24,000 nt of DNA from Parcubacteria group bacterium (GTDB taxonomy: Bacteria > Patescibacteriota > Minisyncoccia > Phycocordibacterales > JABMNX01), in assembly GCA_016784305.1 (NCBI GenBank), contig JADHUY010000007.1, positions 2,340 to 26,339 on the forward strand, read 5' to 3'. This document shows positions 9,323 to 23,514 of this stretch, piece after piece. Within the stretch, counting starts at the first letter, position 1. Each line of letters begins with the position of its first letter. Position numbers and translations under genes: made by a program. Under the pieces are notes generated by a model, which saw only the letters and a list, made by a program, of their open reading frames with translations, did no database searches and was not told the origin of the DNA.

Positions 9323-9377
9323 AATCATATATTAATTTCATATTCTACAAACCCAATATTCTATAGCTAAGTCCAAT

Positions 9378-9427
9378 AGCACAACACCAGAACCTTGCGA
9401 TATATCGCAAGGTTCTGGTGTTGTGCT
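9378..9427. repeat. 50-nt perfect palindrome between divergent genes
   Basis: agcacaacaccagaaccttgcgata | tatcgcaaggttctggtgttgtgct, with the 25-nt arms checked base by base. The core ccttgcgatatatcgcaagg is related to the hairpin at 17530-17549. Confidence 0.9.
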
Positions 9428-9477
9428 TATTAAGTTTCTTATGTCTACGTATAACAACTCTGTGATACGATTTCAGT

Positions 9478-9786
9478 ATGTACAATCCCCAAAACCTAAA
9501 TGAGTGTGAGAAGGAGAAGAAGTATAAAAAAAGAAAGTTCGCTGACTCCGCAATGGTGGTAATTGGCGTTGTTGCATCTCTTTCAAGCATCCCGCAAGTC
9601 TTAAAGATAATAGAAACTGGCACAGTCGCCGGACTTTCTTTTGCAACACAAGCCATAGCCCTTACCACAGTTATAGCTTGGTTTTCCTATGGCATTTATA
9701 TCAAAAACAAACCGCTTATCATCACCACAGGAATATCAACAATCGTTTTATTTATTGTCATTATCCAAATGCTCTACTACGCTTAA
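9478..9786 (+). CDS. SemiSWEET-like PQ-loop small membrane transporter
   Basis: Three predicted TM helices with the SSIPQVLKIIETG PQ-loop motif. The true start may be the internal Met at 9553 (MVVIGV...). Confidence 0.65.
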   Translation: MYNPQNLNECEKEKKYKKRKFADSAMVVIGVVASLSSIPQVLKIIETGTVAGLSFATQAIALTTVIAWFSYGIYIKNKPLIITTGISTIVLFIVIIQMLYYA

Positions 9787-10622: not shown

Positions 10623-10726
10623 ATATATATTTAAAATTAATCTGTTACCTCTACTCTAACCAGATATTGTTAAATAAGTTTTACGATTTGTAGTGTAACA
10701 CTTGTTTGGGTGCCTGACCTAGAATT

Positions 10727-10768
10727 GGCGTCAGGTCACTAACCTATTACTCCAGTATACTGGAGTAA
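10727..10768 (-). repeat. 18-nt box (ggcgtcaggtcactaacc) plus 22-nt perfect palindrome ttactccagta|tactggagtaa
   Basis: A near-identical module occurs at 17673-17721, with the box matching 17/18 and the same palindrome core. It lies downstream of tRNA-His on the minus strand. Confidence 0.85.
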
Positions 10769-10844
10769 CGCAATGTCATCTTAGTAGGGTGCACCCATCC
10801 GGGTACACTGCAGAAATCATAGTCGCTCTGCTCCTTATTTCTGG

Positions 10845-10916
10845 GTGCCTACCGGGAATTGAACCCGGATTTGAGGTTCCACAAACCTCTGTAATAACCG
10901 TTATACCATAGGCACC
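10845..10916 (-). tRNA. tRNA-His (anticodon GTG) with encoded G-1
   Basis: Manual fold of the reverse complement:
- G-1 followed by acceptor GTGCCTA/TAGGCAC.
- Anticodon arm GAGGT-TTGTGGA-ACCTC.
- T arm CCGGG-TTCAATT-CCCGG.
- Discriminator C. Confidence 0.85.
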
Positions 10917-17520: not shown

Positions 17521-17558
17521 ACACTAAAACCTTACGATGTATCGTAAGGTTTTAGTGT
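17521..17558 (+). terminator. 17-bp perfect hairpin directly after tRNA-Val
   Basis: acactaaaaccttacga-tgta-tcgtaaggttttagtgt, followed by tttaaaaa. It belongs to the CGAT-core hairpin family (see 9378-9427 and 23339-23367). Confidence 0.5.
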
Positions 17559-17567
17559 TTTAAAAAT

Positions 17568-17593
17568 TAACTTTAGAGCTAGCTCTAAAGTTA
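17568..17593. repeat. 26-nt perfect palindrome taactttagagct|agctctaaagtta
   Basis: Arms checked base by base. A related copy lies at 23461-23492. Confidence 0.9.
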
Positions 17594-17618
17594 GTTCAGA
17601 AGTTTAAACGTAAATACT

Positions 17619-17662
17619 AATTTGTACGATACCTGCCTGCGCAGGCAGGTATCGTACAAATT
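17619..17662. repeat. 44-nt perfect palindrome aatttgtacgatacctgcctgc|gcaggcaggtatcgtacaaatt
   Basis: Arms checked base by base. The second copy at 23421-23464 differs only by a compensated A>G / T>C pair. Confidence 0.95.
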
Positions 17663-17672
17663 GTGAGAGATC

Positions 17673-17721
17673 GGCGTCAGCTCACTAACCACAATTACTC
17701 CAGTATACTGGAGTAATTGTG
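17673..17721 (-). repeat. 18-nt box (ggcgtcagctcactaacc) plus 32-nt perfect palindrome cacaattactccagta|tactggagtaattgtg
   Basis: Homologous to 10727-10768. Confidence 0.9.
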
Positions 17722-17758
17722 TAAGTGGCTCCTACCCAGACTCCTTCGCAATCTTTGT

Positions 17759-17794
17759 GGCGTCAGGTTTCTAACCTGCCTGCCGGCAGGCAGG
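17759..17794 (-). repeat. third copy of the box (ggcgtcaggtttctaacc) fused to a 20-nt perfect palindrome cctgcctgcc|ggcaggcagg
   Basis: The box matches the 10727 copy at 16/18 positions. The palindrome shares the cctgcctgc/gcaggcagg core with 17631-17650 and 23433-23452. Confidence 0.85.
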
Positions 17795-17851
17795 ACTCGC
17801 AGGCTCGTTAAGGACCTCCTGCCCGGGCAAGTTTACCTTGTGGTCACCCGT

Positions 17852-17887
17852 CACTAAGTATTTTTCATGAATTCAAAATACTAAGTG
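17852..17887. repeat. 13-bp hairpin (one mismatch) cactaagtatttt...aaaatactaagtg
   Basis: 12 of 13 positions pair, with the loop tcatgaattc. On the minus strand its 3' arm supplies a CTTAGTGAC box. Confidence 0.75.
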
Positions 17888-17948
17888 CGCTCGACCCCGG
17901 CTCGCCTTCGCGCTTCGCGCAATATGGCTCCGCCTGACACCAAGGCAC

Positions 17949-17970
17949 GGAAGCAAAGTAGTTTGCTTCC
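17949..17970. repeat. 9-bp hairpin ggaagcaaa-gtag-tttgcttcc
   Basis: Related to the longer hairpin at 23089-23136 (aggcacgRaagcaaagYagtttgcttYc). Confidence 0.8.
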
Positions 17971-17971
17971 T

Positions 17972-18010
17972 AAACAAAAAGGGCGCGCAAATTGCGCGCC
18001 CTTTTTGTTT
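17972..18010. terminator. bidirectional rho-independent terminator, 19-bp perfect GC-cored stem flanked by A/T runs
   Basis: aaacaaaaagggcgcgcaa-a-ttgcgcgccctttttgttt lies immediately 3' of tRNA-Arg(TCT) on the minus strand. Confidence 0.8.
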
Positions 18011-18014
18011 ACCT

Positions 18015-18089
18015 TGGTGTCCCCACGAGGAATCGAACCTCGATCTGCAGCTTAGAAGGCTGATGCTCTATCCGTTGAGCTATAGGGAC
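18015..18089 (-). tRNA. tRNA-Arg (anticodon TCT), CCA encoded
   Basis: Manual fold:
- Acceptor GTCCCTA/TGGGGAC.
- D arm GCTC-AACGGATA-GAGC.
- Anticodon loop CTTCTAA.
- T arm CGAGG-TTCGATT-CCTCG.
- 3' end A-CCA. Confidence 0.85.
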
Positions 18090-20831: not shown

Positions 20832-22046
20832 CTAAAACTCTTCAAAGCTAGGAGTTAATGTTACGGTCGTATTTTCTGTCCTTATATTTCTTGTAGTTTG
20901 GCACGTTAGTGTATATGTACTTTCTTCTACGATTGGTGCAGTTACTTGAGAACCATCTTTCCCTGTGGCACTAAAGTTTGGGCCTGTTACTGAACAAGAA
21001 ATAATGTCATCATCCCCAAGCGTTGACCACGTGATTAATGATGTGTCTCCTGGTTTAACCTTATCTGGGTCAGCCGAAATATCTAGAACCGGCCAGAATA
21101 CACTTACATCAACTGACGCCTGTCCTCCGTTTGAACACACTACAATAAACTGTGTATCTATTGTTGGAGAAACCTGAACAGACCCAGAGGTAGCACCTCC
21201 TGTTGAGAAATTAGAGCCAGAGCTAGATGTTGAGTTTGAACAAGACCAAGTAAGTGTCGCTGACTGGCCTAGGATTACCTCAGGTTTATTAGTTGAAAAA
21301 GATGGTGGCGTCGGCACACACCCAGATTCGGCTGGAGTACTAGCCGAGCATGAGCCATTACATTGAATGGTTCCACTGTTTGTCTGACCGCACGAGTTGG
21401 CCGCTGACTGACAACTGTTGCCATATCCGCTCGGGTTAGAAGGAGTGCTGGCAGAACATGAGCCATTACATTGGATAGCCCCGGCTGAAGTCTGTCCACA
21501 AGCATTCGCAGATGAGTAGCAAGTGTTGCCGTAGCCACTAGGATTAGATGGAGTGCTTGCGGAGCATGAACCATTACATTGGATTGTTCCGCTATTTCTT
21601 TGACCGCATGAATTATATGAAGAGTAGCAAGTATTACCGTAACCGCTAGGATTAGACGGAGTGCTTGCCGAACATGATCCATTACATTGAATGGTTCCGC
21701 TGTTTCTTTGACCGCATGAGTTACTACTTGAATAGCAGGTGTTGCCATATCCGCTTGGATTTGGCGGAGCACTGCTTACAGAGCAGTTGCCACTACAATC
21801 AATCGTGCCACTTGTTCTTTGGCTACATGAGTTGTATGAAGAATAACAGGTTTGCCCAACATTGCCTTCGCACCCACCAAAAGCACCGGCAGCATCAGCA
21901 TCAGCACCACTTCCATCCCCAGGTCCACTATCACCATCAGCAAAAACAGTCCCGACTGCTAAAAATGAAAAACTTAGGATCGCAACCGCAACGAACACAA
22001 TAAATATTAGAAATTTAAAGTGGCTATATGTATTCTTTATTATCAT
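20832..22046 (-). CDS. secreted cysteine-rich tandem-repeat surface protein with two C-terminal Ig-like/beta-sandwich-type domains
   Basis: An N-terminal signal/anchor is followed by five 36-aa units (PSNPSGYGNTCYSSxNSCGQRNSGTIQCNGSCSAST, spacing C-x6-C-x9-C-x3-C). The C-terminal ~160 aa is paralogous to the CDS at 23515-24000. Confidence 0.75.
   Translation of the reverse strand: MIIKNTYSHFKFLIFIVFVAVAILSFSFLAVGTVFADGDSGPGDGSGADADAAGAFGGCEGNVGQTCYSSYNSCSQRTSGTIDCSGNCSVSSAPPNPSGYGNTCYSSSNSCGQRNSGTIQCNGSCSASTPSNPSGYGNTCYSSYNSCGQRNSGTIQCNGSCSASTPSNPSGYGNTCYSSANACGQTSAGAIQCNGSCSASTPSNPSGYGNSCQSAANSCGQTNSGTIQCNGSCSASTPAESGCVPTPPSFSTNKPEVILGQSATLTWSCSNSTSSSGSNFSTGGATSGSVQVSPTIDTQFIVVCSNGGQASVDVSVFWPVLDISADPDKVKPGDTSLITWSTLGDDDIISCSVTGPNFSATGKDGSQVTAPIVEESTYTLTCQTTRNIRTENTTVTLTPSFEEF
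21333..21872 (-). repeat. 108-bp in-frame tandem repeat array (about 5 units) inside the Cys-rich gene
   Basis: The marker ccattacatt recurs at 21355, 21463, 21571 and 21679, an exact 108-nt period. A more diverged unit follows. Confidence 0.9.
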
Positions 22047-22848: not shown

Positions 22849-22920
22849 GCCCTCGTAGTTCAAGGGATAGAATACAAGTTTGCGGAACTTGCGATCCAGG
22901 TTCGAATCCTGGCGAGGGCA
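22849..22920 (+). tRNA. tRNA-Arg (anticodon GCG)
   Basis: Manual fold:
- Acceptor GCCCTCG/CGAGGGC.
- D arm GTTC-AAGGGATA-GAAT.
- Anticodon arm CAAGT-TTGCGGA-ACTTG.
- T arm CCAGG-TTCGAAT-CCTGG.
- Discriminator A. Confidence 0.8.
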
Positions 22921-22923
22921 CAT
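22908..22923 (+). repeat. 16-nt direct repeat, copy 1 (tRNA-Arg-GCG 3' end plus 3 nt)
   Basis: cctggcgagggcacat is identical to 23080-23095. Confidence 0.9.
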
Positions 22924-22948
22924 GAGTGAGGCACGAGCGAATGTGCCC
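22916..22948 (+). repeat. 8-bp hairpin that uses the tRNA-Arg(GCG) 3' end as its left arm
   Basis: The left arm is gggcacat (22916-22923). The loop is gagtgaggcacgagcga. The right arm is atgtgccc (22941-22948). Confidence 0.7.
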
Positions 22949-22953
22949 GAGGA

Positions 22954-22975
22954 GAAGTGTGCTTGCGCACACTTC
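22954..22975. repeat. 9-bp perfect hairpin gaagtgtgc-ttgc-gcacacttc
   Basis: Checked base by base. Confidence 0.85.
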
Positions 22976-23079
22976 GTCAGGATTCGAACGCCGGAACATG
23001 TCCCGAGGTCTACGAGGGACAGTGAGGTGTGTCCCGCGGTACTTAGCGAGTTTACGAGCTTAGTGACCGTCAGGACGAA

Positions 23080-23095
23080 CCTGGCGAGGGCACAT
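23080..23095 (+). repeat. 16-nt direct repeat, copy 2, preceded by a degenerate T-arm
   Basis: cctggcgagggcacat is preceded by gtcaggacgaa, compared with ccaggttcgaat in the real tRNA. The segment 23063-23093 folds as about 12 bp of stacked helices (GTGACC+GTCAGG / CCTGGC+GGGCAC). Confidence 0.85.
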
Positions 23096-23136
23096 AGGCA
23101 CGAAAGCAAAGCAGTTTGCTTTCGTGCCTATGTGCC
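23089..23136. repeat. 22-bp perfect hairpin ggcacataggcacgaaagcaaa-gcag-tttgctttcgtgcctatgtgcc
   Basis: Checked base by base. It is homologous to 17946-17970, with G>A / C>T changes that keep the pairing. Confidence 0.9.
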
Positions 23137-23148
23137 AAACGGAATGAT

Positions 23149-23177
23149 GTTTCTTTCTCTTTCCTAAAGAAAGAAAC
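23149..23177. repeat. 10-bp hairpin gtttctttct-ctttcctaa-agaaagaaac
   Basis: Checked base by base. Confidence 0.8.
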
Positions 23178-23209
23178 GAATGAGTTCGGGGAGGGAGTTC
23201 TTGGGAACG

Positions 23210-23233
23210 TAGTGACCTAGAAACTCGACCCCA
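23210..23233 (+). repeat. direct repeat copy 1: tagtgacctagaaactcgacccca
   Basis: The first 15 nt are identical to 23302-23316, and 21 of 24 nt match overall. It carries the TAGTGACC box. Confidence 0.85.
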
Positions 23234-23301
23234 CAATTGCACCCATCACTAACTCGCTATCGCTGCTAAGCGATGTGTGGTCGAATCCTATTTATAAAAC
23301 A

Positions 23302-23325
23302 TAGTGACCTAGAAACCCAACTCCA
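23302..23325 (+). repeat. direct repeat copy 2: tagtgacctagaaacccaactcca
   Basis: See 23210-23233. The copies are spaced 92 nt apart. Confidence 0.85.
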
Positions 23326-23338
23326 AATCTTAAAACAT

Positions 23339-23367
23339 AAAACCATACGATATATCATAGTGGTTTT
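23339..23367. repeat. imperfect hairpin aaaaccatacgatatatcatagtggtttt (CGAT-core family)
   Basis: Resembles 17526-17553 (aaaaccttacgatgtatcgtaaggtttt) but has a bulge and a mismatch. Confidence 0.6.
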
Positions 23368-23420: not shown

Positions 23421-23464
23421 AATTTGTGCGATACCTGCCTGCGCAGGCAGGTATCGCACAAATT
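23421..23464. repeat. 44-nt perfect palindrome aatttgtgcgatacctgcctgc|gcaggcaggtatcgcacaaatt
   Basis: The second copy of 17619-17662. It probably also serves as the terminator of the minus-strand gene that ends at 23515. Confidence 0.95.
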
Positions 23465-23492
23465 AACTCCAGAGCTAGCTCTAGAGTTAATT
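23461..23492. repeat. 32-nt palindrome (one mismatch) aattaactccagagct|agctctagagttaatt
   Basis: Related to 17568-17593. It overlaps the previous palindrome by the 4 nt aatt. Confidence 0.85.
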
Positions 23493-23514
23493 CTGTACAC
23501 TTCAAAAATTAAAT

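Follow-up and report, generated by a model that had tools for sequence, protein, structure and literature searches.

The 3' end of an intact tRNA-Arg(GCG) gene is present a second time, a short distance downstream, in a 24,000-nucleotide stretch of a Parcubacteria group bacterium (assembly GCA_016784305.1, contig JADHUY010000007.1, positions 2,340 to 26,339; the whole stretch is here termed the window), and this raises the question of what the second copy belongs to. The comparative analysis presented here answers that it forms the right arm of a non-coding element, itself a diverged member of a family spread across the Patescibacteria. The repeat itself is as the original prediction, made from the letters of the window, had described it: the 16-mer CCTGGCGAGGGCACAT, which runs from the 3' strand of the T-stem through that of the acceptor to A73 and CAT, has two exact occurrences on the + strand, 22908-22923 and 23080-23095, and these remain its only two matches in the window when up to 2 mismatches are allowed. 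One hundred dinucleotide-preserving shuffles yielded a mean of 0.03 matches and in no case two, while by our own arithmetic any exact 16-mer direct repeat within 200 nt would be expected about 1e-3 times across the 24 kb.

The 156 bp between the two copies contain no plausible open reading frame (ORF), and a comparison of the 30 ORFs of the window with Pfam identified no integrase, transposase or reverse transcriptase, the matches being to other, mostly housekeeping, families and several ORFs having none; the proposed absence of an integrase is thus borne out. The two clean hairpins reported earlier are likewise present (GGGCACAT / ATGTGCCC at 22916-22923 / 22941-22948, and 22954-22962 / 22967-22975), as are the tRNA-like fragments ggattcgaac (22980-22989) and tctacgaggga (+ strand). 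Two further claims had to be revised. What had been taken for a 156-bp cassette bracketed by the repeats is a unit composed of a left, antisense arm (IR-L), a core and a right, sense arm (IR-R), extending over 22941/22976-23095, and the second repeat belongs to the closing stem of the element itself. The 12-bp minihelix that a CTTAGTGACC box was thought to form with the second copy did not hold up either, since 23059-23100 folded alone reaches a z of only -2.6 and since CUUAGUGAC pairs with the upstream GGUACUUAG, supplying the 3' strand of P3, a covarying helix of the family, so that the CTTAGTGACC minihelix is not the conserved pairing.

To place this unit in context, one genome per species (596 Gb) was scanned for TTAGTGASCTGACGCC, a search that matched at least 116 DNA stretches. 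Among the matches listed, at least about 78 sites share the upstream signature ..CCGGGCAGGAGSCACTTA.. (..GAGYCCGGGCAGGAGSCACTTA-hairpin-), and all of these are labelled Patescibacteria, Saccharibacteria, Paceibacteria, Kaiserbacteria, Spechtbacterales, Parcubacteria, Minisyncoccia or unclassified metagenome-assembled genomes. The remaining listed matches come from other phyla, are devoid of the upstream context and are here treated as noise, several hundred matches being expected, by our estimate, for a 16-mer in 596 Gb. At most sites a same-strand tRNA ends 110-200 nt upstream, and the sequence following CTGACGCC is a copy of the 3' end of that very tRNA (40+ cases). A covariance model, R1, was then built from 31 elements behind Patescibacteria tRNA genes; most loci (numbered with the prefix L) were ascertained by the exact 16-mer, and the E-values of the model are rough. 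No description of the family was found in Rfam 15 or in the searchable literature, queried by topic and by literal motif strings, with subscription journals outside coverage, and the family is apparently undescribed so far.

The elements are about 110-190 nt long, non-coding and on the same strand as the host gene, and they follow a common plan. Read along the tRNA strand, the functional 3' end (S) is followed by a trailer, often with a terminator hairpin (t), by S', the tRNA's reverse complement, which starts at the 3' end and reaches back as far as T54, by an AG that starts the core, by the core and by a second S. Hence, the tRNA end occurs as sense, antisense and sense, and the two extra copies pair into the stem of a long hairpin, with the core as its 'loop'. 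S' tracks the T-loop of its own tRNA (TTCGAAT to ATTCGAA, TTCGATT to AATCGAA, TTCAAGT to ACTTGAA and, for the initiator, TGCAATT to AATTGCA). The left edge of the direct repeat lies at C56 in 35/46 pairs, and S', with its edge at T54, therefore goes 2 nt further (T54, T55). The direct repeat has a modal length of 19-21 nt (range 13-91 nt) and ends at N73 plus 1-3 nt; in five loci it goes on for 17-77 nt into the trailer and terminator, reaching as much as 91 nt in all. Many copies have their S' split precisely at the acceptor/T-stem boundary by a hairpin termed H0 (often GCAAA-loop-UUUGC), many loci have a terminator between tRNA and element, and many copies are followed by a terminator of their own. 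We also considered whether the second unit might be a tRNA duplicate with an internal deletion; IR-L complements T-loop positions 59-60 (ATTCGAA / AATCGAA), which identifies it as the reverse complement of the 3' half and not as the tRNA's 5' strands, and the possibility was rejected.

The copy behind tRNA-Arg(GCG), termed E1, conforms to this plan (Table 1). It is about 128 nt long, the second 16-mer copy being its right arm, and it is seen in 4/4 strain contigs long enough to reach it. Its antisense arm is interrupted (22941-22948, hairpin, 22976-22988) and mirrors TTCGAATCCTGGCGAGGGCACAT of the tRNA's own 3' half; within it, GTCAGGATTCGAA departs from the exact complement by one C-to-T change that retains a G-U pair. 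When 22900-23140 is folded alone, the tRNA 3' half pairs with the antisense copy (z = -10.8). A hairpin of the H0 type occupies the same place in IR-L in the orthologous tRNA-Arg(GCG) loci L128, L138, L146 and L149. The 3' junction of the E1 core is degenerate, with GTCAGGACGAA instead of CTGACGCC-GAAT, and the 5' half of the element (GGAACATGTCC..) resembles one of the alternative cores described below (GAAG-TTTGAG..hairpin..GAAAC-TGTACCG-hairpin-GAATCC); E1 is an old and partly degenerate copy. The ATGTGCC arm of the hairpin at its right end is a truncated antisense copy that opens the next element; strains L001 and L003 have it at full length (ATGTGCCCTCGCCAGGATTCGAAAG).

At least five copies of the family lie in the window, where model R1 finds three besides E1. 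The claim that the same architecture recurs at two other tRNA genes was verified for the repeats at tRNA-Arg(TCT) and tRNA-His, both on the - strand. The tRNA-Arg(TCT) end CAAGGTAAAC at 18007-18016 has its tail copy at 17831-17840, and its element shows the antisense CCTTGGTGTC (17936-17945), the core start AGGCGGAGCC and the motif CTTAGTGAC; the tRNA-His end AGGCACCCA at 10842-10850 has its tail copy at 10707-10715, and its element has kept the P4 hairpin and GGTTAGTGACCTGACGCC (10727-10744) and lost P2. Within the window the motif (T/G)TAGTGA(C/G)C is restricted to the three spacers downstream of these tRNAs, always on the strand of the tRNA.

Table 1. Elements of the family, their parts and accompanying palindromes in the window (window positions)
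Feature	Position	Strand	Basis and remarks
tRNA-Arg(GCG), intact	22849-22921	+	ARAGORN; Rfam RF00005 (tRNA), 65 bits
tRNA-Arg(GCG) landmarks	T54 = 22901, T55 = 22902, C56 = 22903, A73 = 22920	+	Sequence
S, first (functional) copy	22903-22923	+	T-loop C56 to acceptor 3' strand, A73, CAT
Element E1	22968-23095	+	Model R1, 35 bits, E = 2e-9 in 51 kb
E1 IR-L, acceptor part	22941-22948	+	ATGTGCCC, reverse complement of GGGCACAT (22916-22923)
E1 hairpin H0	22954-22975	+	GAAGTGTGC-TTGC-GCACACTTC, inserted in IR-L at acceptor/T-stem boundary
E1 IR-L, T part	22976-22988	+	GTCAGGATTCGAA, reverse complement of TTCGAATCCTGGC (T54 onward)
E1 core	22989-23079	+	Alignment to model; family consensus
E1 core P2 region, inner hairpin	23000-23020	+	CGCCGGA...
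E1 core P3/P4	23040-23068	+	GGTACTTAGCGAG..CGAGCTTAGTGACC
E1 IR-R	23080-23095	+	Second sense copy of tRNA 3' end, exact 16-mer
Perfect 22-bp hairpin	23089-23136	+	5' arm begins in IR-R (GGCACAT), 3' arm ends ATGTGCC
Element E2, second tandem element	23116-23252	+	R1, 42 bits; 3' motif TAGTGACCTAGAAAC at 23210-23224
Remnant of E2-type 3' motif	23302-23316	+
Element behind tRNA-Arg(TCT) (tRNA 18015-18089)	17823-17956	-	R1, 35 bits
P2-less copy between two tRNA-Arg(TCT) model matches	~17759-17827	-	CCCGGGCAGGAGG ... GGTTAGAAACCTGACGCC
Third tandem element of tRNA-Arg(TCT) array	17654-17766	-	R1, 40 bits; GGGTAGGAGCCAC, GGTTAGTGAGCTGACGCC
Degenerate element behind tRNA-His (tRNA 10843-10915)	10707-10842	-	R1, 2.3 bits only
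Palindrome 1	17619-17662 and 23421-23464		AATTTGTRCGATACCTGCCTGCGCAGGCAGGTATCGYACAAATT
Palindrome 2	17564-17597 and 23460-23493		AATTAACTYYAGAGCTAGCTCTRRAGTTA

Outside the window, R1 gave 118 hits in 677 kb of loci from the candidate phyla radiation (CPR), and their placement is tied to tRNA genes. Sixty-nine of the 118 start no more than 120 nt downstream of a same-strand tRNA end, 18 start 121-400 nt from one (tandem copies) and just one lies near an opposite-strand tRNA. An element follows 73/147 tRNAs of 17 amino-acid classes, a fraction inflated by the way the loci were found. For bystander tRNAs in these CPR loci, which were not used to find loci, a copy of the tRNA's own 3' end, sense or antisense, was sought within 260 nt and found downstream in 18/74 and upstream in 0/74. 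The view that the window repeat is no isolated accident is upheld, as is the view that small elements associated with the 3' ends of tRNAs form a family. Most tRNA genes in CPR loci L008-L119 end in N73-C-A (ACAAAA, GCAATG, TCACGA) and not in CCA or in nothing.

Targets are not limited to tRNA genes. In L009 an Rfam-confirmed transfer-messenger RNA (tmRNA) gene (1090-1485) is followed by two tandem elements (to 1885) that copy the tmRNA T-arm and acceptor 3' end, the copy having a CCA that the gene does not have; by eye, and not checked against Rfam, tmRNA genes appear to be followed by elements also in L021, L065, L012 and L022. In three genomes an element lies directly behind ftsZ (L059 5613-5976, L115 1175-1545, L032 2027-2418), and copies of the last ~30-36 nt of the coding sequence (..DWGAVPAFLRRSKLK*) flank the core, antisense and sense. 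The ftsZ end is copied at 36/36 nt in L059; in L115 and L032 the antisense copy measures ~30 nt and the tail has diverged. GCGGTTCCCGC, the target in ftsZ, is similar to a T-arm. In viral contigs of IMG/VR, a search with two motifs returned four chance matches and no model hit.

Several lines of evidence suggest that the core has been selected as an RNA structure. Its consensus comprises, in order, P2 (NCGGAG..GAGYCCG), whose inner hairpin varies, the junction GGGCAGG, P3 (AGSCACU / AGUG-A-SCU), P4 (a variable hairpin, often with tandem G-A) and the end CUGACGC. RNAalifold, applied to a MAFFT alignment of 31 elements, predicted P1-P4 and a GGC/GCC clamp, with compensatory changes in 13/26 pairs, and the same helices recur on the model-fitted alignment. 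There, among the 118 model hits, 92.9% of cells are paired, as against 73.4% in shuffles and 22-42% with the partners slid, and compensatory changes affect 25/26 pairs, as against a shuffle mean of 17.6. The core helices contain 45 G-U and 15 A-C oppositions, an excess that points to RNA, or at least to a single strand, of the tRNA's polarity. Together with the same-strand coupling to tRNAs, this bias is an indirect sign that the elements may be transcribed. Rfam, consulted at gathering and at permissive E-values, recognised only tRNA in the window and only tRNA or tmRNA among loci with canonical copies; the canonical copy in L102 had no match at E <= 10, and no family matches even a 128-bit canonical copy.

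Comparison of orthologous loci reveals considerable turnover. Presence/absence polymorphism, proposed beforehand as a check, was found at orthologous tRNA-Arg(GCG) genes, which are filled in L128, L138, L146 and L149 and empty in L134 and L172. A metagenome scan with the tRNA-Arg 3' half returned mostly unrelated (for example, high-GC) tRNAs and about 12 informative CPR loci. The strain contigs share E1 and differ right after it, at the tandem second element: L001 and L003 have a full second element, with an S' that is a perfect 25-nt complement of the tRNA and a tail from another gene. In L002 a P4 hairpin has been replaced wholesale. Contigs L001-L006 end at window positions ~23095-23216, several independent assemblies thus breaking within or just past elements, and these repeats appear to fragment CPR assemblies at tRNA loci. 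Between genomes, the core type differs at the syntenic tRNA-Arg(TCT), tRNA-His and tRNA-Leu(GAG) genes. The S'-X-S frame at T54/C56 is filled by at least four further core types (L013 Pro; L031 Leu, His; L035 Trp; L075 Gly; L104 Arg). These dissimilar cores lie between S' (..TCGAA) and S (CGAAT..), as do those at the tRNA-Arg(GCG) genes of L128/L138/L146/L149, and the type that E1 resembles is a recurring one.

Alongside this turnover, several features show signs of constraint. The second copy equals the tRNA at 19/19 positions in 24/41 loci and at no fewer than 18 positions in 31/41, while the trailers beside second copies show random identity, save in seven loci where the trailer has been duplicated too. 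The T-stem half of S' stays complementary, and its acceptor half is often decayed. CCA is encoded in 11/46 second copies and in 3/46 first copies (p = 0.04), a difference that is suggestive only. Taken together, the turnover data favour a selfish cassette and the constraint data favour a host-useful tRNA-like RNA, and given that a domesticated element would show both turnover and constraint, the two readings are not exclusive.

The reading that we prefer, and to which we grant roughly an even chance, is that of a small cassette-like element, devoid of an integrase, by which the tRNA end is rebuilt on a local template and which folds as RNA. Such an element would be mobile, or at least duplicative, without an integrase of its own; it would be anchored at the T-loop sequence, and the 3' end of the gene would be rebuilt from the local template, so that the tRNA would stay intact. 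The logic would be akin to that of tRNA-integrating islands, yet with arms copied locally and not borne by the element, since 17 tRNA classes and ftsZ cannot be accounted for by an att sequence that the element brings along. The arms would most likely arise by fold-back or template switching in DNA synthesis at hairpins and at the palindromic TTCGAA, which would generate an inverted-middle triplication; alternatively, the 2-nt offset between S' and S suggests that a trans-acting enzyme might make a 2-nt staggered cut at T54-T55. The element would be read through from the tRNA promoter, and its core may be a protein-binding or catalytic module.

A documented precedent for the first of these mechanisms is ODIRA (origin-dependent inverted-repeat amplification), where replication template switching at short inverted repeats gives rise to an inverted-middle triplication (PMC11790251). 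The elements share with ODIRA the sense-antisense-sense order, the hairpins at the turn-arounds, the variable repeat length and the chimeric junctions. ODIRA events, however, are kilobases long, sporadic and without a conserved insert, whereas the second junction of the present elements lies at T54/C56 and is in every case occupied by a conserved structured core. The order expected from template switching is seen, and junction 1 is the terminator hairpin, but junction 2 carries a conserved core not present upstream, which a simple template-switch model does not predict. The simple fold-back form, with S' joined to S from position 61 and no core, was not observed among the frames compared.

A number of points weigh against the cassette-like element. 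Pure template switching leaves both the origin of the core and the 2-nt S'/S offset unexplained. We infer mobility solely from the distribution of the copies, and no enzyme, donor intermediate or demonstrably recent transposition was found. The conservation of the exact 16-mer is overstated, because the loci were found with it, and the pair counts lean towards structure, because the alignment concerned (A2) was fitted to the model. The identity of the tail next to random trailers is more easily explained by selection on the tail than by insertion history. Finally, the nucleotides at the core junctions hardly vary even between classes that are very distant, and in the Kaiserbacteria ftsZ-linked copies (L115, L032) the loop GCUAUUCCUAAUGC has been kept while the stems are compensated, a combination that looks like long-term purifying selection on a host-useful RNA and favours a non-coding RNA gene.

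It is accordingly possible, though on balance not probable, that the elements are host-beneficial genes for a tRNA-like non-coding RNA and are not mobile. In such an RNA, S' and S would form an acceptor/T-stem-like helix, H0 would stand in place of the tRNA body and the core would expand the T-loop; the RNA would be released like a tRNA, by RNase P, a 3' nuclease and the CCA-adding enzyme, the core would bind protein or act in tRNA metabolism, and new copies would be produced by local duplication and retained by selection. The strong covariation and the invariant junctions across distant CPR classes are in keeping with this proposal, and so are the G-U bias on the tRNA strand, the identity of the tail through N73 beside randomised trailers, the more frequent CCA of second copies, the location of H0 right at the junction of acceptor and T-stem, the placement behind ftsZ and tRNA-Arg(GCG) that is kept between genomes and the terminator that many copies have to themselves. 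It is at odds with the variation of presence, absence and core type at orthologous tRNAs, with tandem arrays and degenerate copies such as the tRNA-His element, with the frequent decay of the acceptor half of S', with the terminator that in many loci separates tRNA and element and with the equivalent copying of the end of a protein-coding gene, ftsZ, where tRNA mimicry makes no sense; in addition, the T-loop nucleotides are paired, which leaves no tRNA elbow. Known tRNA-like structures and minihelices (mascRNA, viral tRNA-like structures and the tRNA-like domain of tmRNA) are processed by tRNA enzymes. The elements resemble them in the acceptor/T-stem-like helix, the discriminator base, a CCA that is sometimes encoded and the location at the 3' end of a non-tRNA RNA, and differ from them in that positions 56-60 are paired, the core is inserted there and the helix copies the neighbouring tRNA exactly.

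Far less probable is the possibility that the window repeat is a remnant of an integrase-mediated island or prophage (similar to a cis-mobilizable element, CIME), with the first copy as the regenerated target and the second as the displaced fragment. Genomic islands and prophages inserted in tRNA and tmRNA genes by tyrosine integrases, including a class with a T-loop sublocation, are collected in the Islander database (PMC4383910). As in such islands, the target is the 3' part of the gene, the 3' end present twice keeps the gene intact and the direct repeat starts in the T-loop, like T-loop-class att sites; tmRNA is also targeted, as it is by islands (PMC4383910). In contrast to islands, the elements are of 110-190 nt and lack integrase and cargo, no integrase lying in or near any window copy; a single core family occurs at at least 17 tRNA classes with a locus-specific repeat copied from the local gene; an inverted copy is obligatory; no copy was found in the viral contigs of IMG/VR, searched with two motifs; and the DNA between the repeats is a conserved, covarying, structured module and not random island debris. 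The classic scar of site-specific integration, which the original prediction had seen in the direct repeat, is hence contradicted on its defining features (17 classes, tmRNA and ftsZ as targets, an inverted copy, a fixed C56 and no integrase), while the miniature elements targeting tRNA ends, or tRNA-trailer RNAs, that it had put forward next to the scar come close to the data.

Equally slim is the chance that the element is a T-loop 'intron', or alternative 3' half, in which the tRNA body would pair with the second copy in read-through transcripts and the stretch from T55 to the second C56 would be looped out or removed. The nesting is geometrically consistent with this, as S pairs with S' inside the T-loop, and in L027 a tRNA-Arg(TCT) without a first 3' end is recovered only on removing a 116-nt element. 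Yet in the window, as in all other tested pairs with a tRNA recovered, the element comes after an intact tRNA, which makes splicing unneeded; L027 can equally be a deletion-derived pseudogene, and no splicing enzyme or ribozyme signature was found (Rfam). ARAGORN misses the L027 tRNA-Arg(TCT) (2599-2770), since the T-loop of this gene is occupied by the element and no intact first 3' end exists. Joining ...GAGGTTCGAT to TCCTCGCGGGGCTA in this locus restores a perfect tRNA, and the gene is either a pseudogene or a genuine bacterial T-loop intervening sequence. Lastly, a chance repeat or an assembly duplication, in favour of which nothing speaks except that metagenome contigs often break near these repeats, is excluded by the expectation of 0.03, by the same junctions in four independent assemblies and by the occurrence of the family in more than 70 genomes.

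The elements also differ from the small repeats known in other bacteria. In the tyrT distal repeats of E. coli, which give rise to rtT RNA (RF00391), a short copy of the tRNA 3' end lies downstream in the same transcription unit and an RNA is released; the 3'-end copy downstream of the tRNA is thus common to both, but rtT is a locus-specific tandem repeat of enterobacteria, without an antisense copy or a phylum-wide conserved core, whereas both of these are present here and Rfam gives no match. Repetitive extragenic palindromic (REP) sequences and bacterial interspersed mosaic elements (BIME), Correia elements and Rickettsia palindromic elements are, like the present family, small, non-coding, multi-copy hairpins, found in reduced or symbiont genomes and co-transcribed with their neighbours, and the Rickettsia elements also land in tmRNA and protein genes. 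Elements of these types have constant terminal repeats of their own and short target duplications of fixed length, unlike the present arms, which are locus-specific copies of the host gene with a left edge fixed at a T-loop nucleotide. For the same reason a miniature inverted-repeat transposable element or other non-autonomous transposon was rejected: the arms vary by locus and equal the host gene 3' end instead of being constant terminal repeats, and the direct repeat has only its left edge fixed, with no duplication of fixed length. Judged by eye, a hammerhead ribozyme (CUGA and GAAA occur, yet A9 and the order of the helices misfit, and Rfam gives no match) and a TnpB omega-RNA, that is, a scaffold with a flank-derived 3' guide (no TnpB is present and an antisense arm is), were discarded as well. 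The same applies to domain V of group II introns, for which the AGC triad and a bulged A are present in the wrong geometry, to RNase P P4, to which GAAAGUCCGGGC is similar but lacks the partner strand, to integron attC (GTTRRRY) and to IS200/IS605 ends, IS110 bridge RNA, retron a1/a2 and the K-turn.

Other repeats accompany the elements in the window. The spacers of tRNA-Arg(TCT) and tRNA-Arg(GCG) have in common two long perfect palindromes (Table 1), at 95% and 88% identity, whose GC centre CCTGCCTGC..GCAGGCAGG also appears in the CPR contigs L030, L074, L112, L136 and L177, inserted into elements at various positions or beside tRNAs; this GC-centred palindrome looks like a second, independent mobile mini-hairpin. 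The hairpin AAAACCTTACGAT-AT-ATCGTAAGGTTTT stands alone in window spacers (17521-17558; 23339-23366) and forms the P4 tip in elements of L059, L085 and L100, from which it seems that hairpin tips are exchangeable modules. Elsewhere, the ORF at 20832-22046 (-) comprises at least four tandem 108-nt (36-aa) repeats (21333-21807, 66-76% identity), and its 404-aa product, which has no Pfam match, is probably a repetitive surface protein. A perfect palindrome of 25+25 nt without spacer (9378-9427) lies within or adjoins a 107-aa ORF (9345-9668, -) that has no Pfam match. The window, whose L19, RluD and UppS show 50-69% identity and synteny with those of L027, L031, L036 and L041, is of the Paceibacteria/Parcubacteria type.

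A bolder and rather doubtful proposal is that the elements make up a class of RNA-structured element not recognised before, whose conserved core would stand between arms templated anew on the preceding gene, and two versions of it may be envisaged. In one, they could be self-propagating 'T-loop cassettes' that make use of a 2-nt staggered break at T54-T55 or of ribozyme-based or RNA-guided targeting, in which latter case the antisense and sense arms could act as programmable guides. In the other, they could be phylum-wide, tRNA-specific tRNA-like RNAs involved in tRNA maturation or protection in organisms with a minimal RNA-processing machinery.

In practical terms, these repeats break metagenomic contigs, can yield false 'split' or missing tRNA calls, as in L027, and could lead astray those island finders that work from displaced tRNA fragments. 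Their fixed breakpoints (T54 / C56) and locally templated arms offer a testable entry to a new mechanism of insertion or duplication. Patescibacteria genomes are tiny (about 0.6-1 Mb) and under strong reduction, and in spite of this about a quarter to a half of the sampled tRNA genes precede 110-250 nt of element material, often in tandem. A conserved, covarying core maintained across the radiation implies that the elements are either highly successful as selfish elements or part of an unknown facet of tRNA/tmRNA biology in a majority lineage that is uncultivated.

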